Assembly (NCBI GenBank): GCA_963796105.1
Contig: CAWCKJ010000002.1
Coordinates: 192,001 to 256,000, forward strand
Source of the DNA: a candidate division FCPU426 bacterium
GTDB lineage: Bacteria; Oederibacteriota; Muellerivitia; Muellerivitales; Muellerivitaceae
Length of the DNA stretch: 64,000 nucleotides
Direction: 5' to 3'
Shown here: positions 45,258 through 61,465 of the stretch, in pieces
Position numbering within the stretch: position 1 is the stretch's first letter
How the letters are laid out: each line of letters opens with the position of its first letter
Notes under the pieces: model-generated
Databases searched by the model: none
Told to the model about the DNA's origin: nothing
The model's input: only the letters and a program-made list of their open reading frames with translations
Made by a program: the position numbers and the translations under genes

Positions 45258-45403
45258 TTTTTACTCCTTTTCAACACAAATCGAACTATGACACTTCAAA
45301 AACTGACTAAGCCTATGTACAAAACACCTGCGGTCTATTGGTTTTTTTAATCTTCCCCCTTTGAAAGAGGGGGATAGAGGGGAAGTTAGCCTTTTATGTA
45401 TTA

Positions 45404-47047
45404 CCTGAATTTTGCACCGAGTTTACCGATTCCGTGGCCAGATCGGCCTGAATCGGGACCCGACAGTGGCCATTTTCATCAGAAGTGAACTTATGTGCAA
45501 AGAATTTTTTGCACCAAGCCACTTCTAGGCCGCCCTGGGTCTTTCCAATCGTTTTCGATCAAGGTATTTGAGGAAACCCAATAGGCCCGCTGTCCTATCA
45601 TCATGGATTGAATACCTCACCACATCCCGATGGCCGTGATACTGGATTCGGGCGGCTACAAAGAGCATCTTCAAACGTGCGATCCGAAGGGTATGGTCCG
45701 GCATGGTGATCTGTTCCTTCTCCTGTGGCTTCTTTCCCGGTCGCTTTTCTTTTCCACAATGGCCCACCATTAGTTTCATCCACCTCCAGAGGTTGTAAGC
45801 CAGCATCACGATCTGGAAAAAAGCATGGTGGCTTTGGAAACTCTTAGAGGGAATTGCTAATAACCCCTCCCGTTGCGCCTCACCAATCAGGTTTTCCACA
45901 TCCGCGCGCAGGTCGTATTCCTCAACCACCCGATGGGGTGCTCCCAGACAGTTGGTCGCGAAGATTCGGTAGACATATCCTTCCATTTCAGGAAGGCTCA
46001 ATTGTTTCTCCCGCGCTTTTTCATCCAGCGTCCTCATCGCCACAAACCGGACTGGTTGTTGCCAGCCTATGGGTTGATGGACACATTCGTTGTATTCGTG
46101 TTCTCCATGGCGGTACCAACCCTTTTTCGTGAAAGGCGGGTCATGCCGCTTGTTCCCGAAGATGAAAGAAAACCCTTCTTTTTCACAGGCTTTCACGCTT
46201 TCCCAGCCGATCATTTCACCGTCACCGCGCACCAGAATCGTCCGGACACAGGACGGCAAGAGTCGCCGGAATTGTCTAATTTGGCGGGCCACTTCCTCAG
46301 AACTAAGGGTGGTTCCGCGTCTTTGGGTTCCGCACAAATATTCCCGGGTTTCCTGGAGAAAACACAGAATGGGCCTCAGTCCCTTCTTGCCCCGGTGCTT
46401 GGGGTTGTATCCTTTTCGGCTTCCCTCGATATTTCCGTAGACCGTTGCGGTGGTGGTATCGATGTTGATCTCCACCTTCTTGGGGGCATATTTCACCTGT
46501 CCCCAAACCTTGGCCCGTAACGCCCCACTCAGATTCAGCAACGATGCCGACTGCCCGATCCCCAGCGACCTCAGGTATCTCCAAAAAGTTGTCACTACCG
46601 GCAACAAGGGAACCCGCAGTAAACCGCACAGCATGACCTCACCCCGCAGGTAGGCAAAATGGCCAAGTCTTTGGAACCCGATGAAAAGAAGCATTAGGAT
46701 GCCGCTTACCATCCGGTAGTGGCCCAAATTCGGAAGGCGTTTAGGTGCGGCATAGTGTTTTTTGAATTCCCGCTCAAAATCAAGAAGGTCGAACATCTTC
46801 GCCAATGCCAACAATCCGCCAAAAGCTGTTAGGCGGTCTTCGCAAATACCTACGGGAGTATTGGCCGTAATCTTGGGCGCGATTCTCCCGTTTCGATTGG
46901 CTTTTTTCTGGACTTGCGGGTTTGATTTCTGAGGCGTATCTTGACGTTTCACCATCTGGGGGACCCTCTTTTAGGATGAGTTGGCTTCGCAACCCTTATC
47001 CTATAATGGTTTCCTAGATGGTTTTTTTATTAGGCGCAAAATTCAGG
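45404..47047 (-). mobile_element. IS1380-family insertion sequence, 1644 bp
   Basis: Terminal IRs CCTGAATTTTGC(A/G)CC; 5-bp target duplication TATTA at 45399-45403 and 47048-47052. Confidence 0.92.
45525..46955 (-). CDS. IS1380-family DDE transposase
   Basis: LTAFGGL, IDTT...YG...GYNP, VRGDG, Y..RADVENLIGE. Confidence 0.9.
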   Translation of the reverse strand: MVKRQDTPQKSNPQVQKKANRNGRIAPKITANTPVGICEDRLTAFGGLLALAKMFDLLDFEREFKKHYAAPKRLPNLGHYRMVSGILMLLFIGFQRLGHFAYLRGEVMLCGLLRVPLLPVVTTFWRYLRSLGIGQSASLLNLSGALRAKVWGQVKYAPKKVEINIDTTTATVYGNIEGSRKGYNPKHRGKKGLRPILCFLQETREYLCGTQRRGTTLSSEEVARQIRQFRRLLPSCVRTILVRGDGEMIGWESVKACEKEGFSFIFGNKRHDPPFTKKGWYRHGEHEYNECVHQPIGWQQPVRFVAMRTLDEKAREKQLSLPEMEGYVYRIFATNCLGAPHRVVEEYDLRADVENLIGEAQREGLLAIPSKSFQSHHAFFQIVMLAYNLWRWMKLMVGHCGKEKRPGKKPQEKEQITMPDHTLRIARLKMLFVAARIQYHGHRDVVRYSIHDDRTAGLLGFLKYLDRKRLERPRAA

Positions 47048-47336
47048 TATTAATTAGAGAACGACTAATACCCCCCACCCAAAGGCGCTCATAGGAAAAA
47101 CCCCCTATGTACAACGAACTCATAGGGAAGAGCCCCTATGTACCCACGAAACCGAAATGCCCACAAACCGAAAAGCCCCATTTTCACCCCCATTTCATCC
47201 ATGTGATAATAATAAATGGAAAATGGGGACGTCCCCATTCCCAATATCTTTGTTTTTCAAAGAGGCATGGGGGAAAGGGGGGAATTAGCACCAGCAACAT
47301 GTTTTTCGAAATTTGCCAATGTTGAGACAATTATTT

Positions 47337-47876
47337 TTAATTCAGCTTAAAGGCGATGGGAAGCCGCACGCGGCAATTAATCGGCTGGCCCGATGCGTCC
47401 AGGGCCGGCCTGAACCTGGCGTCCTGCAGTTTTGCCATGACCACCGTGTTGAACTCGGGCGTACTGCCCTGGACGATGCTGACGGACTTCACCTTTCCCT
47501 CGATATTGATGAGAAGCTCCGCCACCACCCTGCCTTCCTTCTTTTGCTTGCGCATCTCAATGGGGTAATCATCCTCGCCGATCATACCCCCTACCCAGGA
47601 GGGCTGGCGGCTGGCGACGACCGCCACGGCCAAATCAGGCTCGGGAGTGGGCTTGATTGTGGGCGGCGTGGGGGATTTCCCTTTTTTGGCCATGATCCAG
47701 GTCTCGATGACCGGGGTGGCTTGTGTCCCTACGGATAAAAGCGGGGTGCTTTTCATGTCGATGTCGACGCGGTATTCGGTATGGGCTTCCCCCCAGGCGA
47801 TAAGCCCCAAGGCCCCGCCGAATAGGCCGCCGTGGATCAGGCTCGAAATCAGGATTCCCCTGAATAGGCGGTTCAT
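47337..47876 (-). CDS. tonB: TonB energy transducer (short linker)
   Basis: SSLIHG TM anchor; C-domain YP...EGRVV...ARFRPA...PIAFKL. Confidence 0.88.
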   Translation of the reverse strand: MNRLFRGILISSLIHGGLFGGALGLIAWGEAHTEYRVDIDMKSTPLLSVGTQATPVIETWIMAKKGKSPTPPTIKPTPEPDLAVAVVASRQPSWVGGMIGEDDYPIEMRKQKKEGRVVAELLINIEGKVKSVSIVQGSTPEFNTVVMAKLQDARFRPALDASGQPINCRVRLPIAFKLN

Positions 47877-48277
47877 TATTTCCGGTCCATCGCGAGAGCC
47901 ACTTTCTGGACCCCGCCCATCTTGATGGCGTCCAGGACCTGCGCCACTTTCTCATAGGTGATTTCCTTGGGCGCCTTGAGGATCACCTTAACGCCGGGAT
48001 TCACGCCGGACTCAACCGTCATTTGCTGGGTCAGGCGGGGCAGGTCGATGTCCTGGAGGTTGAACTTGAGTTCGCCGTTCAAGCCAAGGCTGACAGTCAA
48101 GGCTGGCTGGGGGGCCATTTCCTCCTTGACCACCTTGGGCAGATGAACCTGGAGGGCCTGCTCGCTGACGAAGGTGGCAGTTACCATGAAAATAATCAGC
48201 AAAACCAGCGTGATGTCCACCAAGGGCGTGACGTTGATGCCCGTGACCAGGTTGCTTTCGTCGGAGGCGGGGACCAT
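47876..48277 (-). CDS. exbD: ExbD/TolR
   Basis: INVTPLVDITLVLLIIFMVT. Confidence 0.93.
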   Translation of the reverse strand: MVPASDESNLVTGINVTPLVDITLVLLIIFMVTATFVSEQALQVHLPKVVKEEMAPQPALTVSLGLNGELKFNLQDIDLPRLTQQMTVESGVNPGVKVILKAPKEITYEKVAQVLDAIKMGGVQKVALAMDRK

Positions 48278-48903
48278 TACTTCACCTTCTCTTGCTTGAG
48301 GTAGGCCAGGAGGACCCTGGAAAGGCTGTCGGTGTTGGTCTGGATCTCCCTTAACCGTGTCAGGAAAAAGTTGTTGGCCACGACCGCCGGGATGGCCACC
48401 AGGATGCCGAAGGCGGTGGCGATCAAGGCGGCGGAGATGCCCGACATGACGACCGAGACGCCGCTTTGGCCGGTCATCCCCAGGTCGTTAAAGGCCTTGA
48501 TGACTCCCAGGACCGTCCCGAAAAGCCCTACGAAGGGGGCGTTGTTGCCGAGGGTTCCCAGGATGATCAAGTACCTTTCCAACTCCAGCTTTTCCCTCAA
48601 CCAGCGGGAGGCCATCACTTCCTCCACCGCCGGGGCGCCTTTCTTGAAGCTCTTCAAGCCGGCCAGGGCCACCCGGGCCTCCACCCTGGCGCTCTTCTCG
48701 GCCCTTTCCACCGCCCCGGGAACGTCATGCTTCTCCAGGCTCGCCGCCAGGCCGTCCATCAACGCCGACAGGTCGCCCCGGTTCTTGTGGAAGACCAGCC
48801 AGCGCTCGATCATGACCCCGATGGAAACAACTGAAGCTATGATCAGCAAAACGATGACCCAGGTGTCCCCCACCAAGGCCATGTGCATGAAAATCGAGTT
48901 CAT
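48277..48903 (-). CDS. exbB: ExbB/TolQ/MotA proton channel
   Basis: APFVGLFGTVLGV, GISAALIATAFGILVAIPA. Confidence 0.93.
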   Translation of the reverse strand: MNSIFMHMALVGDTWVIVLLIIASVVSIGVMIERWLVFHKNRGDLSALMDGLAASLEKHDVPGAVERAEKSARVEARVALAGLKSFKKGAPAVEEVMASRWLREKLELERYLIILGTLGNNAPFVGLFGTVLGVIKAFNDLGMTGQSGVSVVMSGISAALIATAFGILVAIPAVVANNFFLTRLREIQTNTDSLSRVLLAYLKQEKVK

Positions 48904-48964
48904 TGAAAACTCCCCTTTAATTATTTTTTAAACCGGTGTAACAAACGTCACGTACATAAAAATA

Positions 48965-49032
48965 GTCCGAACCCGGCGCACGGTTTCGGTCCCTGAAGCC
49001 GAAACCGTTCTGGGGTACACGCCGGGTTGGAC
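48965..49032. other. Intercistronic two-tier stem-loop between TBDR and exbB
   Basis: Outer stem AACCCGGCG/CGCCGGGTT enclosing inner stem CGGTTTCGG/CCGAAACCG. Confidence 0.6.
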
Positions 49033-49077
49033 AGGAGATGATTGCTGATTCCCCTTTAATCCTTTTTTCTTGAAGCC

Positions 49078-51762
49078 TTAAAAATCGACCTTTACGCCTC
49101 CGTCGAAGGAAGCCCCGTAATACTCGTTCTGGATCGGGAAATTGGGGGAGCCCTGGTAAAAACGATGGTTCGCGTTGTTCAGGTTGTTCCCGTCGGCATA
49201 GATCGTGAAGTCCTTGCTTAAGGCGTACTGGGCCTTCGCGTCGATCTGGAAATAATCGTCATAATAAATGTTCGGGGAGTTGTCCTGGGTTGGGTCCCCG
49301 ATCGTGGTCAGGTTTTTTCCGGTAAAAGATCCGCCAATGTCGAAAGTGAATCCGTATTTCTTGTAAAAGATACCGGTGTTCCAAATCAGGTCGGACTGGC
49401 TGGGCAGTTCGGAATAGACATTCGGCACGATCTCGCCCGAGGAACCGATAAAGGAAATGGACCCGCGGAAACCCAGCCCATTCAGGGGTTCGGGCAGCAT
49501 GGTGTATTGCTGTTGGTACTGGAATTCCGCCCCGTAGATCTGGGAATAGGGAATGTTAACGTAGGAGACCGTATTGGTGACTCCCCCCGAGCTATCCGCC
49601 TTTGAGTAATCGGTCGCGAAATAGTTGGCGATGTCCTTGAGGAAAAAATCGGCGGCCAGGATAGCGCCCTTGGCCGGATAAAACTCCCAAGAACTGTCGA
49701 TGTTGTTCGAGATCATCGGCTTCAGGTTGGGGTTGCCGGATTGAAAATTAATGACCGAGTCCCCTTGTTGCGCATCGAGAGCCGCCCCTAAGCTAAACGA
49801 GGGGATATACTGGTTTTGGGTTGGACGGGCGATGGTCTGCGAATAGTTGGTCCGGGTGACGAACTGGGGATTGAACGTGTACTTCATTCCCAGGCTCGGC
49901 AGGGCATTGGTATAGTCGATGGTCCCCGTATGGGCGATTGGGGCGGATAATTCTGTTTTCGTATAATTCCCGAAGGCGTCATAGGCGTAAGACTGCCACC
50001 AGTTGTATTGAATGTGCGTGGCCTCGACCCGGACGCCGCCCATGATCTCCATTTTTCCGCTTTTGATGGTGTCCATGGCGTAAACCGCGTAGACATCTTC
50101 CCAGTTGTTATAGTCACCCCCCTGGTCATCAATAGGGTCGCCTTGGTAATAAGGACCCTGGTAGGCGTTCGAGCCACTAAGAAGTTTTGTTGTCATGCTG
50201 AGGCTTGGAAGCGGCCCCATGTTATAGATGTTGCCGGGATAGTAGGGCGTACTGCTGGAACCCAAGACTTGATCCATTGTAAGGGTTCCGGTTTGGTCTG
50301 AGGTGAGGCTCACTTGGTTGAAGACGGAGTATTCTAACCGCGCTGCCGCGCCGAATTTGACCGTTCCTGTATCGTCCCCTCCGAGGGGCGTATCGAACTT
50401 GCCGTCGGCCTTGAGGCCATACTGATTCACGTTGTAGGTGCTTGTGCCGTCACTTGAGCCGGTATAGGTGAACAGGCTCGGGTCGTTCTGCCCGGTCATG
50501 TTGCTCATGTTGATGGTGGGGTTATTCCCGTTATTAGCGGTATTGTTGTAAGTGAGCGAGCCTGTAAGATTATTTTTATTTGCGAAACCATAACCAAAGT
50601 CATAGGGCACATTCTGGTCCGCATAGGCAAAACTGGCCTTATAGTCCAGGATGAACCCGCCGAGATTGTTTTCGCCCCCCACTCCCGTGGCCAAGGTGCG
50701 GAACTGGGTTAATTCATTCGTCATGCTTTTTTTATCTTGAACCCCGGCGGCCTGGACATCGGGAATCGTAATGCTTCCGTCGGGATTCACGACGGCGGCA
50801 CCTTCCGCATCCAGGTTTTTAATATCCGTGTGCCATACGGGATTGCGGTATTCGTCATAACCGCTATACATTAAATTGGCGTAGAGCTTGTTTTCTTTGT
50901 CCATTGAGAGGTCGATATTCGCCCCGATCCCGCCCCGGTCACGCTCATAGTCGTAATAACGGAAATCATAGTCCGTGACGGAATTAGGGACTAAAGGCGG
51001 ATCAGCGGGGTCGCTATAGCCGTTCTCCAAGTCGTCGATCCCGAACCTTTCATACTGGTACGAGGCCGCGACCAGGATCCCCAGATTGGTTTTCCCCCCG
51101 AGGTTGAGGGTCTCGCCCCAGGTTAAATCCTCCTTCGTGGTGGCTTGGCTGCGCTCCGGAACATAACCCCCCTCGACCTGGAGTTCGTGGAAGCTTCCGG
51201 GATAATCGAAGGCTGATTTTGGGACGAGGTTCATCTGACCGCCGACACCCTGCGCGTCCATATCCGGCAGGATGGTCTTGAAGACTTCCATTTCACCCGC
51301 CATGCCGGCCGGGATGGCGTCGAGGTCCACAGACCTCGCCGCTTCATCATAGGAGGGGATGATGGTGTTATTGAACGTGATGATGTTCAGGTTCGAGTCC
51401 GTGCCCCGGATGTCGATATAACGGGGCTCGCCGGTGTCATGCTGGACCCCGACCCCGGGCAATTGCTGGGCCGCCTGGGCGACGGTCTTGGCCGGCGTCT
51501 GGTTGATCTGGTCCTGGGAAAGGATGTTCACCTTGTTCAGGGAATCGTGCATCTCGTCGAAGGACTGGGCCTGGTCGATGCCGTGGGCCTTCACCGTGAT
51601 CTCGGGAAGCTCCGAGACCGCGGTCGTGGAGGCCGACAGGGTATCACCCTGGCTGTCCGCCTGTTTGTCGTCAGCCACAGCGGCCCGGATATCCAGGCAT
51701 AAAATCGAAACTATCGAGAGCATCAGCGTGATAAAATTCAAACCCAGCTTATTCATCCTCAT
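49078..51762 (-). CDS. TonB-dependent outer-membrane receptor
   Basis: Signal peptide; TonB-box-like EITV; plug LPGV...DTGEPRYIDIRG; GNPNLKP; NLNN; terminal Phe. Confidence 0.93.
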   Translation of the reverse strand: MRMNKLGLNFITLMLSIVSILCLDIRAAVADDKQADSQGDTLSASTTAVSELPEITVKAHGIDQAQSFDEMHDSLNKVNILSQDQINQTPAKTVAQAAQQLPGVGVQHDTGEPRYIDIRGTDSNLNIITFNNTIIPSYDEAARSVDLDAIPAGMAGEMEVFKTILPDMDAQGVGGQMNLVPKSAFDYPGSFHELQVEGGYVPERSQATTKEDLTWGETLNLGGKTNLGILVAASYQYERFGIDDLENGYSDPADPPLVPNSVTDYDFRYYDYERDRGGIGANIDLSMDKENKLYANLMYSGYDEYRNPVWHTDIKNLDAEGAAVVNPDGSITIPDVQAAGVQDKKSMTNELTQFRTLATGVGGENNLGGFILDYKASFAYADQNVPYDFGYGFANKNNLTGSLTYNNTANNGNNPTINMSNMTGQNDPSLFTYTGSSDGTSTYNVNQYGLKADGKFDTPLGGDDTGTVKFGAAARLEYSVFNQVSLTSDQTGTLTMDQVLGSSSTPYYPGNIYNMGPLPSLSMTTKLLSGSNAYQGPYYQGDPIDDQGGDYNNWEDVYAVYAMDTIKSGKMEIMGGVRVEATHIQYNWWQSYAYDAFGNYTKTELSAPIAHTGTIDYTNALPSLGMKYTFNPQFVTRTNYSQTIARPTQNQYIPSFSLGAALDAQQGDSVINFQSGNPNLKPMISNNIDSSWEFYPAKGAILAADFFLKDIANYFATDYSKADSSGGVTNTVSYVNIPYSQIYGAEFQYQQQYTMLPEPLNGLGFRGSISFIGSSGEIVPNVYSELPSQSDLIWNTGIFYKKYGFTFDIGGSFTGKNLTTIGDPTQDNSPNIYYDDYFQIDAKAQYALSKDFTIYADGNNLNNANHRFYQGSPNFPIQNEYYGASFDGGVKVDF

Positions 51763-51890
51763 AACGACTTCCTTTCCCGATCAGAAGAAATAAAAAACAT
51801 CCAAGGGATTCCATTGCTTGATATTCGAGGGGTGTCCTGATGGAACCGGCTTATGACGGGGGAGAATTTAACGGAAAGACATCCGCTTAT

Positions 51891-51941
51891 TGTTATGGAG
51901 AGGTTAATTGGAGGTAACGATACGATGACGAAATCGTCATC
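51891..51941. promoter_or_regulatory. OmpR/PhoB-family operator array
   Basis: Hexamers TGTTAT, GGTTAA, GGTAAC, GATGAC at 51891, 51902, 51913, 51924 (11-bp period); the last forms the palindrome GATGACGAAATCGTCATC, matching CusR-box geometry ATGAC-N6-GTCAT. Confidence 0.7.
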
Positions 51942-52115
51942 TTCGATATTTATATATTCCCGGTACTATGATGGGGATCATTTACGTGAAAGTGGTTACC
52001 AGCAGAAACTGCGCGGCTTTAGAATGTCTCGGCGGACCGCCAGTCCATAAAATTAAATTTTGTTCATCTTCCAAATTTAGCTTGATACTTCTGCCGGATT
52101 AAATTACATAGACCC

Positions 52116-52790
52116 ATGAGAATCTTGATCATCGAGGACGAACCGAAAACTTTGGCCTACTTGGCCAAAGGCCTTTCCGAGAACGGCTTTACTGTGGACC
52201 GCTCCGGGAACGGCGGGGACGGATTCCGGATGGCCCTGGCGGGCTCCTACGACCTTCTCATCCTGGACATCATGCTCCCGGGCAAGGACGGCTGGTCGAT
52301 CCTGTCGGACTTGCGCGGCTCAGGACGAAGGATTCCCGTTCTTTTCCTGACCGCGCTGGACGCGGTGGAGGACCGCGTGAAGGGGCTGGAATCGGGGGCG
52401 GACGACTACCTGGTGAAACCCTTCGCTTTCACGGAGCTATTGGCCAGGGTGCATACCCTTTTGAGAAGGGGCCAAGCCCAGCCGCCGGAAGCTCTCAAGA
52501 TAGCCGACCTTGAAATCGACCCCATCAGCCACAAGACCCTGAGGTCCGGACGGAAACTCGACCTCACCCCCAAGGAATTCTCCCTCCTATATCTACTCGC
52601 TTCCAAGAACGGGGAAGTTTTGTCCCGGGCCCGCCTGGCGGAACTGGTATGGGACATGAGTTTCGACAGCGGCACCAACGTGGTGGATGTCCATGTCCGC
52701 CGGCTTCGTTCCAAAGTGGATGACTTATTCAACCCGAAACTGATCCATACCGTCAGGGGGGTGGGCTATGTCCTCGAAGACCGCGGATAA
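52116..52790 (+). CDS. Heavy-metal-type response regulator (CusR/CopR/CzcR/IrlR-like)
   Basis: LDIMLPGKDGW, GADDYLVKPFAF, VWDMSFDSGTNVVDVHVRRLRSKVD. Confidence 0.92.
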   Translation: MRILIIEDEPKTLAYLAKGLSENGFTVDRSGNGGDGFRMALAGSYDLLILDIMLPGKDGWSILSDLRGSGRRIPVLFLTALDAVEDRVKGLESGADDYLVKPFAFTELLARVHTLLRRGQAQPPEALKIADLEIDPISHKTLRSGRKLDLTPKEFSLLYLLASKNGEVLSRARLAELVWDMSFDSGTNVVDVHVRRLRSKVDDLFNPKLIHTVRGVGYVLEDRG

Positions 52791-54204
52791 AAAGGGGCTG
52801 GGTTGGTTCGGCTCCCTGGCCGCCCGCATGACCCTCTGGTACGCCCTTTCCGCCTTCGCGCTCGTCCTGACGACTTCCGGTTTCATCTATCACGCCCTTA
52901 CCGACAGCCTGGCCCACGAGGATGATGTCCTGCTTTCTGAAAATGTTAAAAATTTAAACGCTTTGGCCAAAAAGTCCCAGGGTGACCTGGAGGATATCCA
53001 GGAGTTCGTGGGCGAAACTCCAAAGTGGTACAGGGAAATCTCGTTTTGGACGAGGATATTGGACAGCAGTGGGCGGGTCTTGACCGAGACCCCTGGAATG
53101 TCCCAAACTTTGCCCTTGCGTTTGTTTTTGGGAGGTTTGCCGGACGACCGGAATTCCACGGTCCGCTCCGGGGAGGGAAAGCCCTTTCGGATCAGGTCGT
53201 CCCAGGAGGTTTGGCCCGGTAATGCCCCCGCCCGCGTTACCGTCCAAATGGCGATGGACATGAGTTCCGACGAGATCATCCTGAGAAAATTCCGGGCGGA
53301 GCTTATGACCATCCAATGCTTTTCCCTCCTGGCTTGCGCCTTGGCGGGCTACTGGATCGCCCAGAGGGGCATCCGGCCCGTGAGGAGAATGGCGGATACC
53401 GCCGCCCGGATCAGGTCCAGCACACTTTATGAGCGGTTGGGCCGGTCCGGCCTTCCCTCCGAGCTTTCCGACTTAGCCGCGACTTTCAATGACATGCTGG
53501 ACCGCCTGGAAGAATCCTTCGCCAGGCTGTCCCGTTTCAGCTCCGATATCGCGCATGAACTCCGCACCCCCATCCAGAACCTCCGCGGGGAAGCGGAAGT
53601 GGTCCTGAGCAAGGAGCGGGAGCCGGGAGAGTACCAGGACCTCCTGGGTTCCTCCCTGGAGGAATACCAGCGTCTTTCCAGCCTCATTGACAACCTCCTT
53701 TTCCTCGCGCGGGCGGAAAATCCCCAAACCCAAATCCAGCGGGAGGAATTGGACTTGAAAAAAGAACTGGGGCTTCTCCAGGACTTTTACGGCCCATCGG
53801 CGTGGGAATCGGGTATCGCTTTACGGGTGGATGCCCCGGAACCTTTGCGGGCGCACATGGACCGTTCCTTATTCCAACGGGCCGTGGGTAACTTGGTCGA
53901 AAACGCCTTGAAGCACACTTCCTCGGGAGGGAACCTGCTTTTGAAAGCCTCCGCCAGCGATGGAAAAGTTCTTGTGGAAGTTACCGACACGGGAAAGGGG
54001 ATTCCCCCGGACCGGATTTCCAGGGTCTTTGACCGATTTTACAGGGTGGACCCCTCGCGCTCCCCCTCTTCCGGGGGCGCCGGGTTGGGGCTTTCCATCG
54101 TGAAAAGCATCATGGACTTGCATGGGGGGACAGTGGAAATCCGGAGTGAAGTTTCCAAGGGGACCACCGTCACGCTTTTGTTTCCCGCTGTTGGGTCTGT
54201 TTGA
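52768..54204 (+). CDS. Heavy-metal-type sensor histidine kinase (CusS-like)
   Basis: 2 TM + HAMP; FSSDIAHELRTP; FDRFYRVD; GAGLGLSIV. Confidence 0.92.
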   Translation: MSSKTADKKGLGWFGSLAARMTLWYALSAFALVLTTSGFIYHALTDSLAHEDDVLLSENVKNLNALAKKSQGDLEDIQEFVGETPKWYREISFWTRILDSSGRVLTETPGMSQTLPLRLFLGGLPDDRNSTVRSGEGKPFRIRSSQEVWPGNAPARVTVQMAMDMSSDEIILRKFRAELMTIQCFSLLACALAGYWIAQRGIRPVRRMADTAARIRSSTLYERLGRSGLPSELSDLAATFNDMLDRLEESFARLSRFSSDIAHELRTPIQNLRGEAEVVLSKEREPGEYQDLLGSSLEEYQRLSSLIDNLLFLARAENPQTQIQREELDLKKELGLLQDFYGPSAWESGIALRVDAPEPLRAHMDRSLFQRAVGNLVENALKHTSSGGNLLLKASASDGKVLVEVTDTGKGIPPDRISRVFDRFYRVDPSRSPSSGGAGLGLSIVKSIMDLHGGTVEIRSEVSKGTTVTLLFPAVGSV

Positions 54205-54271
54205 GCTTCATATGCTTTGTTGTTCCGTTTGCCGGGGCGTTAATAGGTTTTCACCATCCGCCCCGGAAAAA

Positions 54272-54298
54272 ATTACGCCGCTGTAATTTGGCTGTCAT
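54272..54298 (+). promoter_or_regulatory. Cop-box-like site upstream of the yncE gene cluster
   Basis: ATTAC-N6-GTAAT followed 11 bp later by TGTCAT. Confidence 0.6.
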
Positions 54299-54463
54299 AT
54301 CAATGACTTACCTTGATGTAAAAATAAAATGGGAGTTTATGGAGTCAAAAGGTTTAACGCATATTAATTTGATAGCAGGAGAGTTGTTGAAGCCTGAAAT
54401 TAAGCTTTGAGGCGTCTTAAGGTGTGTTCCTAGTTAAAGTAAAATTTTTTTACGGGGGTCGTT

Positions 54464-55498
54464 ATGAACTGCTTTAAACTGTTTTTGCTGATAGGGCTTT
54501 TGACCGCATCAATAGGCTTGGCCGGCGCGCAGGAGGCGGGGAAGAGCGGATACAAGATCCTCCAAAAAGTTTCCCTGCCGGGGGACGGGGGCTGGGATTT
54601 TCTGACCGTGGACAGCGTGAACCGCCGGGTTTACGTCACCCATAACAACAGCGTGCAGGTGCTCGACGCGGATTCCTTGAAATTGGTGGGGACCATCGAG
54701 AACGTGCCCCATCCCCACGGGGTGGTGGTCCTGCCTGATTTAGGAAAAGGCTACGCCACCAGCGGTGTCCCGGGAAGCGTGGTGGTCTTTGACCTGAAAA
54801 CCTTGAAGCGTATTACCGAGATACCGGACTCCAAGGATGCGGACGTGATTTTCTATGACGAATCCTCTGGGAAGGTTTTGACTTTCAACGGCGACAGCGA
54901 AAATGCCGAAGTTATCGATCCCGCCACCGACAGGGTGGTTAAAACCGTTGAACTGGGAGGGAAACCGGAAGTCGCGGTGTCCGACGGAAAAGGCCACCTC
55001 TATGACAACCTGGAGGATAAAAGCGTGATTCTCAAGATCAATGCCAAGACCATGAAAATCACCCAGCGCTGGCCTTTGGCGCCGGGAGAATCCCCCTCCG
55101 GGCTTTCCATGGACGTAAAAAACAACCGGCTCTTCAGCGGCTGCCACAACAAGAACCTGGTGGTGATGAACGCGAAGAACGGGAAGGTCGTACAGACCCT
55201 GCCCATCGGCGACCACGTGGACGGCACCTGTTTCGATCCCGAATCCGGCACCATTTTCAGCTCCAACGGGGACGGCACCTTGACGGTGATCCACGAGGAT
55301 TCACCGGACCAATACACCCTGGTGGAAAACGTCAAAACCGAACCCGGCGCCAAGACCATGGCTTTCGATTCCAAGACGGGAAGGGTTTTCATGACAACGG
55401 CCCGGATGGAGCCGCAGTCCACGCCTACCGAAAAAGACCCCAAGCCGCACCACAAGCCTGTGCCTGGGACCTTTCATGTCCTGGTATTGGGGAAATAA
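54464..55498 (+). CDS. Secreted YncE-family beta-propeller protein
   Basis: Signal peptide AGA|QE; GDGGWDFL; repeated blades; GAKTMAFD. Confidence 0.85.
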   Translation: MNCFKLFLLIGLLTASIGLAGAQEAGKSGYKILQKVSLPGDGGWDFLTVDSVNRRVYVTHNNSVQVLDADSLKLVGTIENVPHPHGVVVLPDLGKGYATSGVPGSVVVFDLKTLKRITEIPDSKDADVIFYDESSGKVLTFNGDSENAEVIDPATDRVVKTVELGGKPEVAVSDGKGHLYDNLEDKSVILKINAKTMKITQRWPLAPGESPSGLSMDVKNNRLFSGCHNKNLVVMNAKNGKVVQTLPIGDHVDGTCFDPESGTIFSSNGDGTLTVIHEDSPDQYTLVENVKTEPGAKTMAFDSKTGRVFMTTARMEPQSTPTEKDPKPHHKPVPGTFHVLVLGK

Positions 55499-56264
55499 GC
55501 CTTTGGAAAAAAACGGGAACGGAATCGCATTGAGCAAGGTTCCCGAGCTGACCTTGCTCTTTTGGATCATTAAGATCGCCGCCACCACCCTGGGTGAGAC
55601 AGGCGGGGACACGGTTTCGATGTCCATGAACCTGGGATACCTGGTGGGTACGGGGATCTTCGCGGTCATTTTCCTGGGGGCCGTCGCCATCCAGATCAAG
55701 GCCAAGAAGTTCCATCCCTATATCTACTGGTTCACCATCATCGCCACCACCACCGTCGGCACGACCCTGGCGGATTTCTCGGACAGGTCCCTCGGCATCG
55801 GTTACGCCGGGGGTTCGGCGATTCTTTTTTGCCTTCTCATGGGCTCCCTCTACGTTTGGAAAAGGACCCTGGGGACGGTAGCGGTGGATTCGGTCAAGGA
55901 CCCGAAATCCGAGATGTTCTATTGGGTCACCATCATGTTCTCGCAGACCCTGGGGACCGCCTTGGGGGACTGGACCGCCGACTCCGCCGGCCTGGGGTAC
56001 CTGGGGGGAGGGGCCTTGTTCTTCCTGCTTTTGGCGGTGGTGGCGGGGCTTTATTACGGGACCAAGATCTCCCGGACCATCCTCTTTTGGTCGGCCTTCA
56101 TCTTGACCCGCCCCTTAGGCGCGGTTTTGGGGGATTTCCTGGATAAGCCCATTGATCACGGGGGGGTGGCCTTGAGCCGTTATTCCGCCTCCGGGGTGTT
56201 ACTTCTCTTCATCTTGGGCTGTATCTTTTTCTTCCAACATCGGCCCGCCCGGAAAGTCCATTGA
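55476..56264 (+). CDS. COG4705/DUF347-repeat membrane protein
   Basis: SKVPELTLLFWIIKIAATTLGETGGD, SQTLGTALGD, ILTRPLGA; true start probably a few codons downstream. Confidence 0.85.
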   Translation: MSWYWGNKPLEKNGNGIALSKVPELTLLFWIIKIAATTLGETGGDTVSMSMNLGYLVGTGIFAVIFLGAVAIQIKAKKFHPYIYWFTIIATTTVGTTLADFSDRSLGIGYAGGSAILFCLLMGSLYVWKRTLGTVAVDSVKDPKSEMFYWVTIMFSQTLGTALGDWTADSAGLGYLGGGALFFLLLAVVAGLYYGTKISRTILFWSAFILTRPLGAVLGDFLDKPIDHGGVALSRYSASGVLLLFILGCIFFFQHRPARKVH

Positions 56265-56452
56265 ATTGTCAGCCGCTTCAAGATTTTCCCAAGGAGAAAT
56301 CGGCGCCCAAACCGGCTGGTAAATCCAAACCATTCCGGCCCTAAAGGTGTCAATGCTATGGCTCCATTCAAGTTTTCCATCCCTCTTGCCAGGCCAAAAC
56401 CACCTCGTGAAAAAATAATGGGAAGTTTTGTTATTCCGTTGCGATCCATATA

Positions 56453-57238
56453 ATGTGGAACATGCTCAAACCGATCTTCGGGTTGAAACGATGCTTGAGA
56501 ATGCTCCTCGGAATGGCGGCGGTCCTTAGTTTCGTCCCCGCGGCTTGGGCTGGCCCCCCTTTTGAAACCGACGATCCCGAGCCGACGGAACTGGGCCATT
56601 GGGAAATCTACCTGGGGGGAACCGCACTTCAAATCCAGGACGATTTTTCCGGGACAGCCCCTTTCTTTTCCGTAAATTACGGAGCCTTGCCGGATGTCCA
56701 GTTAAGCCTGACCCCACAAGCTTCTTTTAATTTTCCAACAGGCAATATCCAGTACTTTGGTTTTGGGGATACCCTGGTTGGCCTGAAGTACCGTTTTCTC
56801 CATGAAAGCCCGGATATACCCCAGGCCGCTTTTTTCCCCCAGGTCAATTTCCCCACAGGCGATGCCGGGAAGGGGTTGGGGTTCGGGCAGTACCAGTTAC
56901 TGCTTCCCCTCTGGGTCCAAAAGAGCTGGGGCCCCTGGACCACTTTTGGGGGCGGGGGCTATTGGGTGAACCCGGGAGCCGGCAGCCAGAATTGGGTTTT
57001 CCTGGGTTGGGAAATCCAAAGGGACCTCTCGCCCCTGTTCACCCTGGGAGGGGAAATTTTTTTTCACAGCGCCAATGAAATTGGCGAAAAGGACAGTGTG
57101 GGATTCAATCTCGGGGGATTCATTAATTTCGACCAGGTGAACCACATCGTTTTCTCTGCGGGAAGGGACATCTTCCAGCCCGAGTATCAATTCACGGGTT
57201 ATTTGGCCTACGAATGGACATTCCCCAAGGGTGAATAA
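56453..57238 (+). CDS. Putative outer-membrane beta-barrel transporter (phenol MetA-deg/CoxB-like)
   Basis: AWA|GPPFETDDPEP, GFGDT.VG.KYRF, PTGD, alternating beta strands; start uncertain. Confidence 0.7.
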   Translation: MWNMLKPIFGLKRCLRMLLGMAAVLSFVPAAWAGPPFETDDPEPTELGHWEIYLGGTALQIQDDFSGTAPFFSVNYGALPDVQLSLTPQASFNFPTGNIQYFGFGDTLVGLKYRFLHESPDIPQAAFFPQVNFPTGDAGKGLGFGQYQLLLPLWVQKSWGPWTTFGGGGYWVNPGAGSQNWVFLGWEIQRDLSPLFTLGGEIFFHSANEIGEKDSVGFNLGGFINFDQVNHIVFSAGRDIFQPEYQFTGYLAYEWTFPKGE

Positions 57239-57277
57239 AATAATATTCCATGGTCATATGCTTTAAGAAAAAGTCAT

Positions 57278-57662
57278 TAGAACCTATTTCAAAATCAATT
57301 TTGCTTATTCAACAAAACACGAACAATATGGAGTCTCCCCTTCTGTGCTAAAGCACTATGCTGTTCTCATTTTTTAAATTTTATATGAGGAACAGTATGA
57401 AAGAGGGGCATTTCGGTTTGTGGGTACCATAGGGGTTTTCCCTATGAGCGCTTTTGGAACAAGGGGGAGTTAGCCTTTTCGTCATGTTTTATTAACAACT
57501 AATATCCCCTATCCCCCTTTTTCACCCCCATTTCATCCATTTGATAGTTATAAATGAAAAATGGGGAAGTCCCCATCCTCAATGACTTTGCTTTTCAAAG
57601 TGGCATGGGGGAAGGGGGAACCTGCTATCGCCCGTTCAATAGGTATTTTGAGATAGGTTCTA
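57278..57662. mobile_element. MITE-like element copy 1 (385 bp incl. flanking TA)
   Basis: Ends TAGAACCTATTTCAAAAT / ATTTTGAGATAGGTTCTA (17/18 inverted match); non-coding, hairpin-rich interior. Confidence 0.8.
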
Positions 57663-57842
57663 AATGATCACGCACCCAATCCCTTACCCGTCGAATTCTT
57701 TATCACAATGTTAAATCTAATTTTGTCCCGTTCAGTCCTGTTGTCGGAAATTAGATTCAACGATAATATTTATCCGGGGAGACTTCTGGGATTGTTTTTA
57801 AACCTAACGGATTTTAAGGTGATTATTTTTTAGGAGGTCCCC

Positions 57843-59825
57843 ATGCGCCGATTCGCACAGAAAAGAAATAATTACATCTGGTTTTACGTCCTTTTCTTAG
57901 GGATCACTGCGGCGGTTATCGGTGCCTGCAGTAGTTCCAAGAGTCCTAGCTCCCCCGCACATTCCTCAGCCACCAGCACCTACACCTACACCCCCTGCAC
58001 GGATGGAAACGGCTACACCTGCACTCCGACTTCAACCAACACGGCTTGCATGGTGAACGGCACGCCCTGCACCAAGACGCAGACTTTCACCCCGACCCAG
58101 ACCTTCACCCAAACATGGACTAATACCCCGACCAACACATCCACGGTCACTTCGACCATCACCCCCTATCCCACCGCGACGGTAGGACTTTACGTCATCG
58201 AAGGACAGGTTCAATACAACGGATCCACCAATTTATCGGGAAAAGCGCTCCAGGTGTGTGGAAGTCCTGGCTTGATGGCCTGCGGGGTAACTTTCAGCGG
58301 CGACACCATTAAAAACGAGCTGTCCGCTCCCGGTCCCGTTGCCTATTCACTCAGTTTTCCAGGGAACGGCTCCTACGTTGTTTGGGCAAATCTTTGCCGC
58401 CCCGAGAACGAGATAGAAGTATTGGGCGGCGTAACGACCACCAGCCTGATCGGTTCCGCTTATGTTAACGCTCCCTACGCGATTTACGCGGGCACGACCA
58501 ACGCATGCTTCAACTCCGGTACCCCCACGACCTTCACTTTCAGCGGGCCCAATACCTTCACCGGCGTCAACCTCACCTTCGGCGACACCTGCGAGTTACC
58601 CGGCATATCCGGCACCATCACCTATACCGGCGCCAACGTGGTCAACGCGCAAAACGCCCTCTTTGTCCAGGCTTATAGCAACAGTAATTACACCGGTGGC
58701 CTCTTTTCTTCGATGGTGTCTGAGAATGGTGGAGCGTTCAAGGTGCTTCCTCCCTTGTGCGGCGGGCCCGTCTATCTCCAGGCCTATTCTTCCCCCGGGA
58801 ATTATTTATTAGCGGACTGCGATCCCGTGACGGACCTGGGTGCGATGGCGGCGAATTACGAGAACATCACCAACTACGCCATCACACTAACCGATGCCAA
58901 CCTGTATAACTGTACTTTCACCGCGACCCCCTCCGTAACGTCCACCCCCACCAATACCGTCTGCACGGATTCCAACGGCTATACCTGCACCCCGACTGGA
59001 ACTTTCACCCCCACCCCCACCAATACCGCCTGCGTGGACTCCAACGGATACACCTGCACCCCTACCCCCACCCCGACTGACACGAAAACACCGACCTCGA
59101 CCTTCACCAGCACCTTCACGCATACACCCACCCACACCTGGTCTCCCACCCCGAGCCCGACGATCATTCCTGACGCTTCCATCGGGTTCTATACCAACTC
59201 CCCCTTAGCGGTCCAAGCGGGTGTGCCCATACCCGCATCGACCAACCTGGCCAACAGCGCCTACGGGGGGACATCCCCCTATTATTACGAGGTGGGCACC
59301 CTCGCGGAGGGGACACCGCCCCTGGGGACCGTGGTGGACCTGAACGGAAACCTGGACGGCACGCCCTCCACCGTCGGTAGCAATGTCTTCGATGTCTGCG
59401 CCGTGGACTCCACCGGCAGGGGAAGCTGCCAGCCCGTCACCGTGGACGTGGTATCGGTGACCGTCACTTCCATCGTCCAGACCCTGGGGACCAAGGTTTT
59501 TGATGGAAACTGCGGCGACTACGGAAATTCCGAATACGTCACCATCACCGTCAACGGAACCGCGGCAGGGCCAGTCAGCACCTACCTCGACCTCGATATC
59601 GCCGGGGGAATGAATTACACCTGCCCCAGTTGGACCGTCGGGACCCAGACGGGACAGTTCTACCGGGCCACCGGCCAACCCTTGAGCGTGTCGTTCTCGC
59701 TCCAATACGTGGATTTCCTGACCAATTGCAATTCGGATACGGGCGGCTATTACAGCGCCGAGGTTGTCGCGGACGGATATGACTTTTTCAGCCTCAACCC
59801 CAATTTCACCGTCTTCTGGCAATAA
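57843..59825 (+). CDS. Cys/Thr-rich surface lipoprotein with Ig-like domains
   Basis: AGGAGG RBS; lipobox IGA|C; PT linkers with CxDxNGYTC loops; putative Ig segment (GGTSPYYY...G.LDGTP). Confidence 0.82.
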   Translation: MRRFAQKRNNYIWFYVLFLGITAAVIGACSSSKSPSSPAHSSATSTYTYTPCTDGNGYTCTPTSTNTACMVNGTPCTKTQTFTPTQTFTQTWTNTPTNTSTVTSTITPYPTATVGLYVIEGQVQYNGSTNLSGKALQVCGSPGLMACGVTFSGDTIKNELSAPGPVAYSLSFPGNGSYVVWANLCRPENEIEVLGGVTTTSLIGSAYVNAPYAIYAGTTNACFNSGTPTTFTFSGPNTFTGVNLTFGDTCELPGISGTITYTGANVVNAQNALFVQAYSNSNYTGGLFSSMVSENGGAFKVLPPLCGGPVYLQAYSSPGNYLLADCDPVTDLGAMAANYENITNYAITLTDANLYNCTFTATPSVTSTPTNTVCTDSNGYTCTPTGTFTPTPTNTACVDSNGYTCTPTPTPTDTKTPTSTFTSTFTHTPTHTWSPTPSPTIIPDASIGFYTNSPLAVQAGVPIPASTNLANSAYGGTSPYYYEVGTLAEGTPPLGTVVDLNGNLDGTPSTVGSNVFDVCAVDSTGRGSCQPVTVDVVSVTVTSIVQTLGTKVFDGNCGDYGNSEYVTITVNGTAAGPVSTYLDLDIAGGMNYTCPSWTVGTQTGQFYRATGQPLSVSFSLQYVDFLTNCNSDTGGYYSAEVVADGYDFFSLNPNFTVFWQ

Positions 59826-59838
59826 TAAAACGCTAGCG

Positions 59839-59858
59839 GCCCCGGTTTGGGGCTTTTT
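59839..59858 (+). terminator. Rho-independent terminator
   Basis: GCCCC-GGTTT-GGGGC followed by TTTTT just after the stop codon. Confidence 0.6.
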
Positions 59859-59899
59859 CAATTTATTGTCCCTAAAATCCTAAATTCCTTAAAAGTTAC

Positions 59900-60228
59900 T
59901 AGAACCAATCTCAAAATCAATTTTGCTAATTTGACAAACCACGAACAACATGTAGTCTCCCCCTCTGTGCTAAAGCACTATGCTGTTCTCATTTTTTAAA
60001 TTTTATATGAGGAACAGTATGAAAGAGGGGCATTTCGGTTTGTGGGTACCATAGGGGGTTTTCCCTATGAGCGCTTTTGGAACAAGGGGAAGTTGGTTTT
60101 TCCGTTGAGCATTATTAACAGCTAATACCCCCCTGCCCCCTTTTTCAAAGGGGGATTATCACTAGCGCCATACTTTTCGAAATTTGCCAAAGTTGAGCCG
60201 CTTAGAAGTAATTTTGAGATAGGTTCTA
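59900..60228. mobile_element. MITE-like element copy 2 (329 bp incl. flanking TA)
   Basis: Ends TAGAACCAATCTCAAAAT / ATTTTGAGATAGGTTCTA; same orientation as copy 1 with a near-identical ~120-bp core. Confidence 0.8.
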
Positions 60229-60316
60229 ATAGATACTACCCTCATCCCTTTGGGAACCCTCGACCTGATACCCCGGGAAATCAATCCCATGAGCCATTTG
60301 GAACCTGAAAATTTAC

Positions 60317-61465
60317 ATGAATTTTAACATGGACGAAACACATGGGCGCCCAGGGGGGATAACATGTTGTCCTAACGTCCGGCCAAAACCCATTCTCCCC
60401 CCCATCGGCATCGAGCCCCCGGCCTGGTTTAAATCGCTTTCCTTTTCCCTGTGTAAGGCGGCCGGCATGGAGGCAGAAATCCTCCGCTTAAAAGTTTCCC
60501 CAATGATCAATAAGAAAAAAGAAAATGCGGGCCTTATCCAGCGTCTATTGGTGCCGGTACCGCCGGTGGGCCCCGAAGCCCCATGCGAGGAGGTTTACCG
60601 CCTCTTCGCCGAGGACAAAGCCCTCCAATCCATCGCCGTGGTGGAGGACGAGAAACCGGTGGGCTTGGTGAACCGCTACGCGCTCGTGGACCGGTTCTCC
60701 CGGAGATACTTCAGGGACCTATACGCGCTCAAGCCCATCCATTTGATCATGGAAAAAAACCCCCTCATCGTGGACCGCACGGTTTCCCTGGACAACTTGA
60801 GCGCCATTGTCGCGGATGAGGAGGAAAGGTACCTTTATGAGGGCTTCATCATCACCGAGGAAGGGAAGTACCGGGGCATCGGCACGGGCCAAAGGCTGAT
60901 CAAGGAAATCATGGAACAAAAGCAGGCCGACCTCTACCATTTGGCGCACCACGACGCCCTGACGGGACTTCCCAACCGTCTTTTGTTTTACGACCGGCTC
61001 TCCCAGGCCCTCGCGCAGGCCCAGCGCAACGTGAAGCGGTTGGGCGTGCTTTTTATCGACCTGGATCATTTCAAAAACGTCAATGACTCTCTGGGGCACG
61101 GGGCGGGTGACAACCTTTTGAGGGAAACGGCCCTGAGGATTTCGGGGTGCTTGCGCGAGGGAGACACGGTGGCCAGGCTGGGCGGGGACGAGTTCACGGT
61201 TATCTTGACGGACATCGCAAATCCCGCGGACGCGGCCCTGGTCGGGAAGAAGATCATGGAAACCATGGTCCAGCCTTTCTCCCTGTCGGGAAACGAAGTC
61301 CGCGTATCCTGCTCCATCGGGGCGAGCCTTTTTCCGGACGACGGCGCGGACATGGAAACCCTCGTCAAAAACGCCGACACGGCGGTTTACCGCTCCAAGA
61401 AAACCAGGAATTGTTTCTCTTATTTCGGGACGGATGTCCGACAGGAAAAAGCCGGGCAAACATGA
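60317..61465 (+). CDS. CBS-pair + GGDEF diguanylate cyclase
   Basis: CBS pair (PVGLVNR...GFIITEEGKYRGIGT); HDALTGLPNR; RxxD and RLGGDEF; true start likely ~60470-60500. Confidence 0.88.
   Translation: MNFNMDETHGRPGGITCCPNVRPKPILPPIGIEPPAWFKSLSFSLCKAAGMEAEILRLKVSPMINKKKENAGLIQRLLVPVPPVGPEAPCEEVYRLFAEDKALQSIAVVEDEKPVGLVNRYALVDRFSRRYFRDLYALKPIHLIMEKNPLIVDRTVSLDNLSAIVADEEERYLYEGFIITEEGKYRGIGTGQRLIKEIMEQKQADLYHLAHHDALTGLPNRLLFYDRLSQALAQAQRNVKRLGVLFIDLDHFKNVNDSLGHGAGDNLLRETALRISGCLREGDTVARLGGDEFTVILTDIANPADAALVGKKIMETMVQPFSLSGNEVRVSCSIGASLFPDDGADMETLVKNADTAVYRSKKTRNCFSYFGTDVRQEKAGQT

Follow-up and report, generated by a model that had tools for sequence, protein, structure and literature searches.

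Precisely inserted gene-less modules of 48–87 nt in nested hairpin repeats of a candidate division FCPU426 bacterium

Three short gene-less modules, here called a, b and c, interrupt hairpin repeats of a candidate division FCPU426 bacterium at precise positions, and they are very probably mobile as units. They came to attention in a 64,000-nt stretch of DNA (the window), where a sequence-only reading had described three loci with plug-in modules in a hairpin scaffold. Checking the window sequence confirmed the three loci and the modules at the positions claimed (Table 1). All three loci stem from a genome-wide family, of which we counted 81 hairpin arms; loci B and C are 90% identical across 248 nt by BLAST.

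Table 1. Features of the three hairpin loci in the window (a caret marks the bond between two positions)
Feature	Position	Strand	Remarks
Locus A left wrapper, W3 type	45309..45354	+	terminal 16 nt resemble ends of resident ~31-copy IS1595-family element
Locus A left arm, C-run/GAA/G-run hairpin and tail	45355..45389	+	b site 45361^45362 empty
IS1380-family element, 1644 bp, in scaffold spacer	45404..47047	-	transposase 45525-46955
Locus A right arm, tail	47065..47079	-	
Module c, doubled, right arm	47080..47175	-	two 16-17 nt parts and two 31 nt parts
Locus A right hairpin, half preceding a site	47176..47186	-	
Module a, locus A	47187..47273	.	87 nt twin hairpin
Locus A right hairpin remainder and right wrapper, W2 type	47274..47327	-	
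Locus B left wrapper, W1 type	57278..57336	+	17-nt terminal inverted repeat
Locus B left arm	57337..57473	+	split by b and c
Module b, locus B	57344..57397	+	54 nt; invariant small hairpin and covarying hairpin
Module c, locus B	57409..57456	+	48 nt; boundary ambiguous by one G
Locus B right arm	57500..57618	-	split by a; type bracketing DUF559 genes in relatives
Module a, locus B	57525..57611	.	87 nt twin hairpin
Locus B right wrapper, W1 type	57619..57662	-	
Locus C left wrapper, W1 type	59900..59958	+	
Module b, locus C	59966..60019	+	identical to locus B copy
Module c, locus C	60031..60079	+	49 nt
Locus C right arm	60122..60154	-	a site 60147^60148 empty
Locus C nested right wrappers	60155..60228	-	W2 end (to 60198) within W1 end (to 60228)

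The architecture is layered, with a micro-element inside a doublet inside a MITE, and at locus A the stack is also split by an IS. That locus (45351–47326) is a single scaffold divided by an IS1380 element, of which the genome has 20 full copies, with a 5-bp duplication at 45399–45403 and 47048–47052. The earlier suggestion that the scaffold is carried in a MITE was correct, since MITE-like wrappers enclose it. Wrapper W3 shares its ends with a resident IS1595 element, and two of the three W3–W3 pairs (IS1595-type ends on both sides) are flanked by duplications of 8–9 bp. Target duplications of 8 bp are the rule in the IS1595 family. A fourth module, d, is an IS1595-type MITE with the shared ends and 8–9 bp duplications, and a full IS1595 occupies its site in a congener. 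Left and right wrappers are shuffled among scaffold copies, which shows recombination at the arms. This layering shows how composite bacterial repeats build up.

The scaffold itself contains no gene; it is an inverted doublet, and in relatives arms of this type bracket DUF559 nuclease genes. A check for DUF559 genes, recommended by the sequence-only reading, was thus productive in the relatives but gave no DUF559 match in this genome. Viral sequences scanned with a DUF559 protein contained one distant match, which lacked scaffold arms.

Genome BLAST found seven copies of module b. Those at loci B and C are identical, as had been stated, but the length given (55 bp) included one C of the host. 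The noted absence of b from the hairpin at 45355 is real, and b is indeed better conserved than the scaffold, with a mean identity of 98% versus 54% for the 37-nt flank. For module a there are five full copies and one variant; the copy numbers of all three modules are far above chance expectation. Its presence at loci A and B (copies 87% alike) and its absence near 60147 were read correctly, and its identity is 88% versus 53% for the 37-nt flank, a smaller margin over the scaffold than that of b. Two details differ from the original description. Module a sits at the border of stem and loop rather than in the loop; and although it produces no net target duplication, two of the five scaffold copies in this genome have one extra junction base (A at 47274, T at C4:1525913). 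Module c, 48–49 nt long and inserted at a site preceded by GG, has 19 BLAST matches in the genome. It had been called inverted and partly duplicated at about 47070–47180. The doubled form is there, but it is not inverted relative to its target; it looks inverted because the arm that holds it, the right one, runs inverse to the left.

Precise filled and empty sites for a, b and c are seen among repeat copies at different loci. In this genome, b occupies 7 of 44 left arms, a occupies 4 of 37 right arms plus one hybrid arm, and c is present in 4 left and 10 right arms. Module b is spread over three outer-flank subtypes, all of which also include empty siblings; copies of a fall into four right-arm clusters. 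Within the scaffold family, this spread could be explained by gene conversion. A second, unrelated MITE-like repeat with 34 copies carries c in five (four full, one partial) and another insert in two, leaving 27 empty; a occupies 1 of 11 sites of this repeat among those listed. In relatives, the hosts of b are the scaffold, the other DUF559-type arm and the second repeat; a is found in the scaffold and the second repeat as well, and also in heptamer arrays. Because each module also occurs in unrelated host repeats, simple deletion derivatives of one fixed long element are ruled out; other scaffold subtypes carry the modules as well. Assembly chimeras are likewise ruled out, because genomes of other genera, assembled separately, show the same junctions again. 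With both objections removed and unrelated hosts in evidence, the original proposal of tiny non-autonomous elements that target the hairpins of another repeat is supported.

Site comparisons between genomes were less clean. A search for orthologous sites in a congener gave no match to the flanks at E 1e-20. Downstream of the orthologue of gene 56453–57238, one relative (G016) carries an oppositely oriented scaffold that holds only b, another (G034) a scaffold that holds only a, and a third (G006) no scaffold. These differences are suggestive of insertion polymorphism, though this is not a clean case.

One could suppose instead that each module goes back to one or a few ancient insertions, made by an ordinary or extinct mechanism, and that the present copies arose only by host amplification and arm recombination. 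The shuffled wrappers, the similarity of loci B and C and the doubled form of c common to locus A and C4:579xxx all fit such a history. However, unrelated hosts are alike over only 3–5 nt around the insertion site, too little for homologous transfer; a occurs in at least six and b in at least four distinct target contexts across genera; and b is still about 93% identical between genera. We regard this explanation as quite unlikely.

Both a and b have folds backed by covariation. In the twin hairpin of a, seven pairs include 13 cells changed on both sides (0 of 500 shuffles), and in the long hairpin of b, six pairs include 27 cells; neither these cells nor the target counts below are independent events, because the copies are related by descent and, for b, some from metagenomes match G016 copies exactly. 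A fold of a based on its ends was rejected: the 7-nt terminal repeat is present but has zero compensatory changes. Target motifs are short. On one strand a is preceded by TT, with AA after it in 20 of 24 sites, and b inserts at YYY^TG, with TG after it in 30 of 32 sites and three pyrimidines before it in 30 of 31.

Good folding (z −2.5 to −3.6 as DNA) together with fixed insertion orientation might indicate small RNAs that were reverse-transcribed into DNA and inserted at hairpins. We consider this highly improbable. Rfam gave 0 matches up to E 1 in 45000–61000, and G-T and A-C mismatches are even (6:5 in a, 11:15 in b), so neither RNA strand is favoured; G-U is not in excess over A-C on either strand.

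The position of the insertions raises the question of the host's own nucleases. Within the DUF559-type arm, a and b are inserted at one and the same bond, immediately 5' of a T at the apex of the hairpin, and in the other DUF559 arm type b uses the corresponding place. Module a also lies within an arm of an intact DUF559 cassette (L067), and one copy lies at the end of a four-helix-bundle gene, in that gene's heptamer array. Ssn nucleases cleave single-stranded DNA in the vicinity of their own hairpin repeats (PMC11893778). By analogy, modules lacking a transposase of their own might be joined by repair or template switching at nicks made by the small nuclease of each host repeat (DUF559 or others). 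We think this unlikely. Each module keeps its own target motif, and its orientation relative to that motif, across unrelated hosts, so the specificity points to the module itself. In addition, one A-run of the second repeat is entered by a at three different positions, and near-identical copies of b are present in this genome despite the lack of a DUF559 match.

Searches of 31 family genomes and scans of sequence collections turned up no version of a, b or c that carries a gene. The core of a matched four stretches in a collection of genome contigs, three of them true copies and one a chance match, none gene-bearing, and a single stretch in viral sequences that was not the full module. The b motif matched 108 loci (88 metagenome, 20 viral), among which we recognised 15 true short copies by eye and zero long ones. 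Plasmids gave no match, and three DNA sequencing runs with small shares yielded only short pieces, none bridging a module under the rule applied.

The sequence-only reading had also advised looking for RAYT/IS200 and IS110 genes. Y1/HUH matches number 16 in this genome, yet Y1 and IS110 elements have ends unlike the modules: across 105 loci there were only two 15-nt matches, both attributable to chance. Resident Y1, GIY-YIG and IS110 genes were rejected as partners for this reason, and the flanks of the two small GIY-YIG genes contain neither scaffold nor modules. Y1 proteins of the family include a 133-aa IS200 type and 318-aa TIRtron types. The 318-aa type occurs in 19 of 30 relatives; as a single query it had no match in the incomplete assemblies of G042 and G040, which carry a, or G036, which carries b.

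IS110 deserves separate mention, since b has a TG at either flank in 30 of 32 sites, which would fit either a core or a duplication. The modules, b above all, could be miniature derivatives of IS110-family (bridge recombinase) elements that enter palindromic repeats by recombination at a 2-base core, and IS110 elements of this bacterial family do target other repeats. PMC12288879 describes ISPpu9 and the gene-less MITEPpu9 inserting into REPs with an AG dinucleotide at both ends. Yet only 6 of 30 relatives yielded an IS110, and G016 (89% complete), which has eight copies of b, was not among them; the 3' end of b varies along with its stem partner rather than being a fixed sequence; and a has no shared core. 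Taken with the dissimilar ends, this makes an IS110 origin distinctly improbable.

The explanation we favour, tentatively, is that a, b and c are separate gene-less mobile elements of 48–87 nt, which an HUH/Y1-type enzyme acting in trans pastes in as single strands. Cutting and rejoining of single-stranded hairpin DNA at dinucleotides, CT and CA among them, is documented for HUH enzymes of this class (PMC8266576). Such an enzyme would recognise each module's fold together with a short fixed motif, and hairpin repeats would be targeted for their exposed single-stranded DNA. Once inside a mobile host, a module could hitchhike, and could also spread between arms by recombination. Against it, the modules carry no GTAG-type tag, and one enzyme may not serve all three, because a, b and c have no sequence in common. 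A broader and more doubtful proposal is that they form a class of micro-transposons under 100 nt, defined by fold rather than by terminal repeats, each with its own enzyme and parasitic on nuclease-associated hairpin repeats, with the bond shared by a and b being the DUF559 nick site. If true, that bond would be the first positional clue to what the uncharacterised DUF559 cuts, and it makes the cut site a testable prediction. With their exact junctions, short target rules and folds backed by covariation, the modules are suited as they stand to a cleavage and joining assay, and they bear on how gene-less repeats of less than 100 nt move.

In the literature covered (main texts, mostly openly available), we found no published description of the modules or of DUF559-bracketing repeats. 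The scaffold shares with REP/REPIN–RAYT systems and TIRtrons the form of an inverted doublet with arms that elsewhere enclose a single gene, and the modules, too, are hairpin units without net duplication (PMC3116915, PMC3733652, PMC8266576, PMC6006769). As with REP/REPIN, a short palindrome forms inverted doublets dispersed between genes, the 81 scaffold arms being mostly paired. Unlike REP/REPIN–RAYT, the arms bracket DUF559 rather than Y1, the Y1 genes have other ends, and the GTAG/CGTC tag is missing at the hairpin foot in the a and b alignments and the arms listed. The ends of resident TIRtrons are also unlike the modules. NTS/SRM repeats with Ssn GIY-YIG nucleases are similar in that hairpins frame a small nuclease gene and are also dispersed without it, but the nuclease family and repeat sequence differ, and the accessible text of PMC11893778 makes no mention of nested micro-inserts. 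ISPpu9/MITEPpu9 (PMC12288879) offers a gene-less module whose insertion point within a palindromic repeat is fixed and which, like b, has a dinucleotide at each end; it differs from our case in that we see no cognate IS110 with matching ends, no core for a, and several unrelated hosts. IS1595-family MITEs (PF12762) resemble only wrapper W3 and module d, whereas a, b and c have no such duplication or partner. The modules also lack features of a classical TIR MITE: the terminal repeats of b and c are at most 4 nt, the 7-nt repeat of a does not covary, and no autonomous IS with module ends was found in the 31 family genomes and collection scans. As to target duplication, a has none, the 2-base TG of b may be a core or a duplication, and c is ambiguous by one G.

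SDR-type precedents for the modules exist. The small dispersed repeats (SDRs) of Nostoc and relatives, described by Elhai et al. (2008), reportedly insert precisely, often into other repeats, and are not known to have an enzyme. The modules share with SDRs very short length, absence of genes, possible mobility, and precise filled and empty sites inside other repeats. PMC2884548 describes SDRs as very short gene-less units that are possibly mobile. The modules differ in being two to four times longer (48–87 nt versus about 20), in the covarying hairpins of a and b, and in their hosts, DUF559-type doublets and MITEs from a family without cultured members.

The three loci at which the sequence-only reading had placed nested repeats are present in the window as it stated. 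By BLAST, the genome (G000; 4.98 Mb, 16 contigs, 96.8% complete, with the window on contig C2) holds five full copies and one variant of module a, seven copies of module b and 19 matches to module c, and its repeat matches merge into 61 repeat loci. Module b measures 54 nt, not the 55 bp first given. Locus A is a single scaffold interrupted by a 1644-bp IS1380 element with a 5-bp duplication; G000 has 20 full IS1380 copies, with the duplication readable at 19. Loci B and C are direct repeats around a gene whose 660-aa product is Thr/Pro-rich and matches nothing in Pfam; the duplication that would mark a composite transposon is absent. Orthologues of a neighboring gene are followed by a scaffold in three genera and stand without one in a fourth. 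These scaffolds differ in orientation and in the modules carried, and the region 3' of the orthologue may be a site used repeatedly. Two stretches on contigs C5 and C6 are nearly identical, flanks included, reflecting either segmental duplication or redundant assembly.

The scaffold consists of two inverted arms of ~35 nt about a variable spacer, and each arm combines a hairpin (C-run/GAA/G-run) and a G-rich tail. Our arm pattern search kept 87 of 179 candidates, of which six were false by eye and removed, so that 44 left arms and 37 right arms remained; the pattern overlooks some arms, such as those carrying a fourth insert, module d. Both filled and empty arms were seen for a, b and c. Module b occupies seven left arms and module a four right arms plus one hybrid arm, and the two split one common bond, directly 5' of the T preceding the GAA loop. 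Module c lies a few bases beyond that bond in 4 left and 10 right arms. Its orientation relative to the arm is constant everywhere, so that the c unit at 47080, claimed as inverted at ~47070-47180, is inverted in appearance only. A palindromic ~36-nt unit, also found in other contexts, sits in the tail of some left arms.

Copies of b are 98% alike, against 54% for their 37-nt flanks, and copies of a 88% alike, against 53%; for b this agrees with the earlier claim of better conservation than the scaffold. When arms were clustered by outer flank, b spanned three subtypes with empty siblings in each, and a spanned four right-arm clusters. This comparison does not tell gene conversion apart from new insertion. 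We consider it unlikely that the insertions are old and have spread only through hitchhiking and recombination.

Covariation defines module a through its fold, not through terminal repeats. Across 38 copies, a twin-hairpin fold had seven pairs with 13 cells changed on both sides, which none of 500 shuffles equaled. A fold pairing the 7-nt ends and a central palindrome yielded zero covarying pairs. Module b (26 copies) has a nearly invariant small hairpin followed by one with six covarying pairs and 27 cells, although by pair count alone 86 of 500 shuffles reach six; the last pair of this stem involves the target's T. Module c has one 7-bp hairpin, and Rfam returned no match up to E 1 across 45000-61000. 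G-T and A-C mismatches are balanced in a and b, and movement by an RNA route is very improbable.

The modules also occur independently of any one scaffold, as had been proposed: a, b and c are found in unrelated hosts. A second MITE-like repeat has 34 copies (37 rows listed, three non-members removed), and its hairpin apex carries c in five (four full, one partial), a different insert in two and nothing in 27; module a is at 1 of 11 listed sites within it. An insert of ~74 nt adjoins the c site at this apex. Twelve of 30 relatives carry module a. Its hosts there are the scaffold (among these copies an arm of a DUF559 cassette that is intact), the second repeat, where it interrupts a single A-run at three different points, and heptamer arrays, in one instance where a four-helix-bundle gene ends. 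Its core motif turned up in nine of the 30 family genomes and in none of 68 other genomes of the phylum. Module b occurs in seven relatives, in the scaffold, the second repeat and another DUF559 arm type that also hosts c. In tRNA-derived and terminator-like repeats, the c hairpin makes up the right-hand side of longer units with two hairpins; related twin-hairpin units of 60-80 nt are embedded in tandemly repeated terminator-like sequences and tRNA 3' ends.

The modules thus show precise, oriented insertion into unrelated hairpin hosts under short target rules, with the fold of a and b kept over sequence. AA lies 3' of a in 20 of 24 distinct sites (related rows rather than independent events, with part of the scaffold copies missed by the script), and TG lies 3' of b in 30 of 32 (likewise related rows). 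G000 has 28,737 YYYTGA sites, yet all six a and seven b copies are confined to the two hosts, roughly estimated at 0.4% of the genome. Capture at nicks by a host nuclease is a rather unlikely account of such insertions.

We infer that the modules are mobilized in trans. According to PMC8266576, HUH/Y1 enzymes act on hairpin DNA in single-stranded form, cutting and rejoining it at dinucleotides, which would fit module insertion best; that such an enzyme moves the modules is our tentative preference. G000 has 16 Y1 matches, mostly of the TIRtron kind (cf. PMC3733652). However, Y1 and IS110 ends at 105 loci were unlike any module, and a gene-bearing parent was absent from 31 family genomes and the collection scans, both of which count against the HUH route. 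Movement by an IS110 element is quite unlikely. A hairpin unit of 25-26 nt (14 copies listed) is precisely inserted into TIRtron-type Y1 elements at their right end, which exists in filled and empty forms; the unit also occurs in other hairpin repeats and once inside another insert within a scaffold. IS110-family elements lie at the terminal repeat of such Y1 elements in several genomes.

The scaffold itself, present in 9 of the 30 relatives (each of the same family), has other associations. DUF559, which the sequence-only reading had suggested looking for, had no match in G000, although 20 of the 30 family genomes have one. Scaffold-type inverted arms flank 5 of 29 examined DUF559 loci (two in G016 and one each in G034, G035 and G040; one has a truncated left arm) and a sixth, broken copy in G016, and a related arm type brackets most of the remaining 24. 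The most fitting reading of the scaffold is thus a DUF559-cassette doublet that lacks the gene, and DUF559 would be its mover.

Three kinds of inverted ends (W1, W2 and W3), mixed and nested among copies, enclose the doublet. The terminal 16 nt of W3 are common to a G000 element of ~31 copies that encodes an IS1595 transposase of 302 aa, and 8-9 bp duplications flank two of three W3-W3 copies. An 8-bp duplication accompanies module d (six copies), whose site holds a full IS1595 in the congener G001. Part of the nesting is therefore ordinary DDE transposition. W1 ends start with TA, mostly after a pyrimidine; neither W1 nor W2 yielded a cognate transposase. One 62-bp W2 wrapper has no scaffold; as some of the adjoining wrapper bases are missing too, it may have arisen by deletion.

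Coordinates of the features (C, contig of G000; L, examined locus)
Feature	Location
Locus A	window 45351-47326
Locus B	window 57278-57662
Locus C	window 59900-60228
Thr/Pro-rich protein gene	window 57843-59825
Neighboring gene	window 56453-57238
Its orthologues, with or without a scaffold	L325, L327, L326 (G034, G016, G006)
Near-identical stretches	C5:52770-53032; C6:322613-322876
~36-nt palindromic unit	C3:249039; C4:1525970; L272
~74-nt insert	C2:127072; C12:210354
c-related twin-hairpin units	C4:1010520-1010693; C4:1278502; C4:160097-160203; C3:83736-83880
25-26 nt hairpin unit	C3:497234; C3:665923; C4:1410084; C4:1526006; C3:730988-733161; others
IS110 at Y1 terminal repeat	L116, L122, L117, L124, L366 (G001, G034, G035)
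Scaffold-less W2 wrapper	C4:1420223-1420284
Small GIY-YIG gene	C4:166527-166745, minus strand

The structure is real, layered mobile DNA. The modules work like the SDRs of cyanobacteria, reportedly the subject of Elhai (2008) and mentioned briefly in PMC2884548. Our literature search, which covered main texts, returned no account of repeats that bracket DUF559 or of the present modules, and the consulted part of the review PMC3184786 has nothing on nesting. The small GIY-YIG gene, flanked by inverted hairpin repeats, has an Ssn/SRM-like layout. As far as the consulted parts of the sources go, the scaffold is built similarly to REPIN-RAYT (PMC3116915, PMC6006769) and NTS-ssnA-NTS (PMC11893778) systems, yet does not qualify as a member of either, and MITEPpu9 (PMC12288879) is the closest tested example of a gene-less module within a palindromic repeat. 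What is distinctive here is that three unrelated micro-elements share two unrelated hosts, that two of the three share one bond, and that one, module a, is set by a covarying fold instead of terminal repeats.
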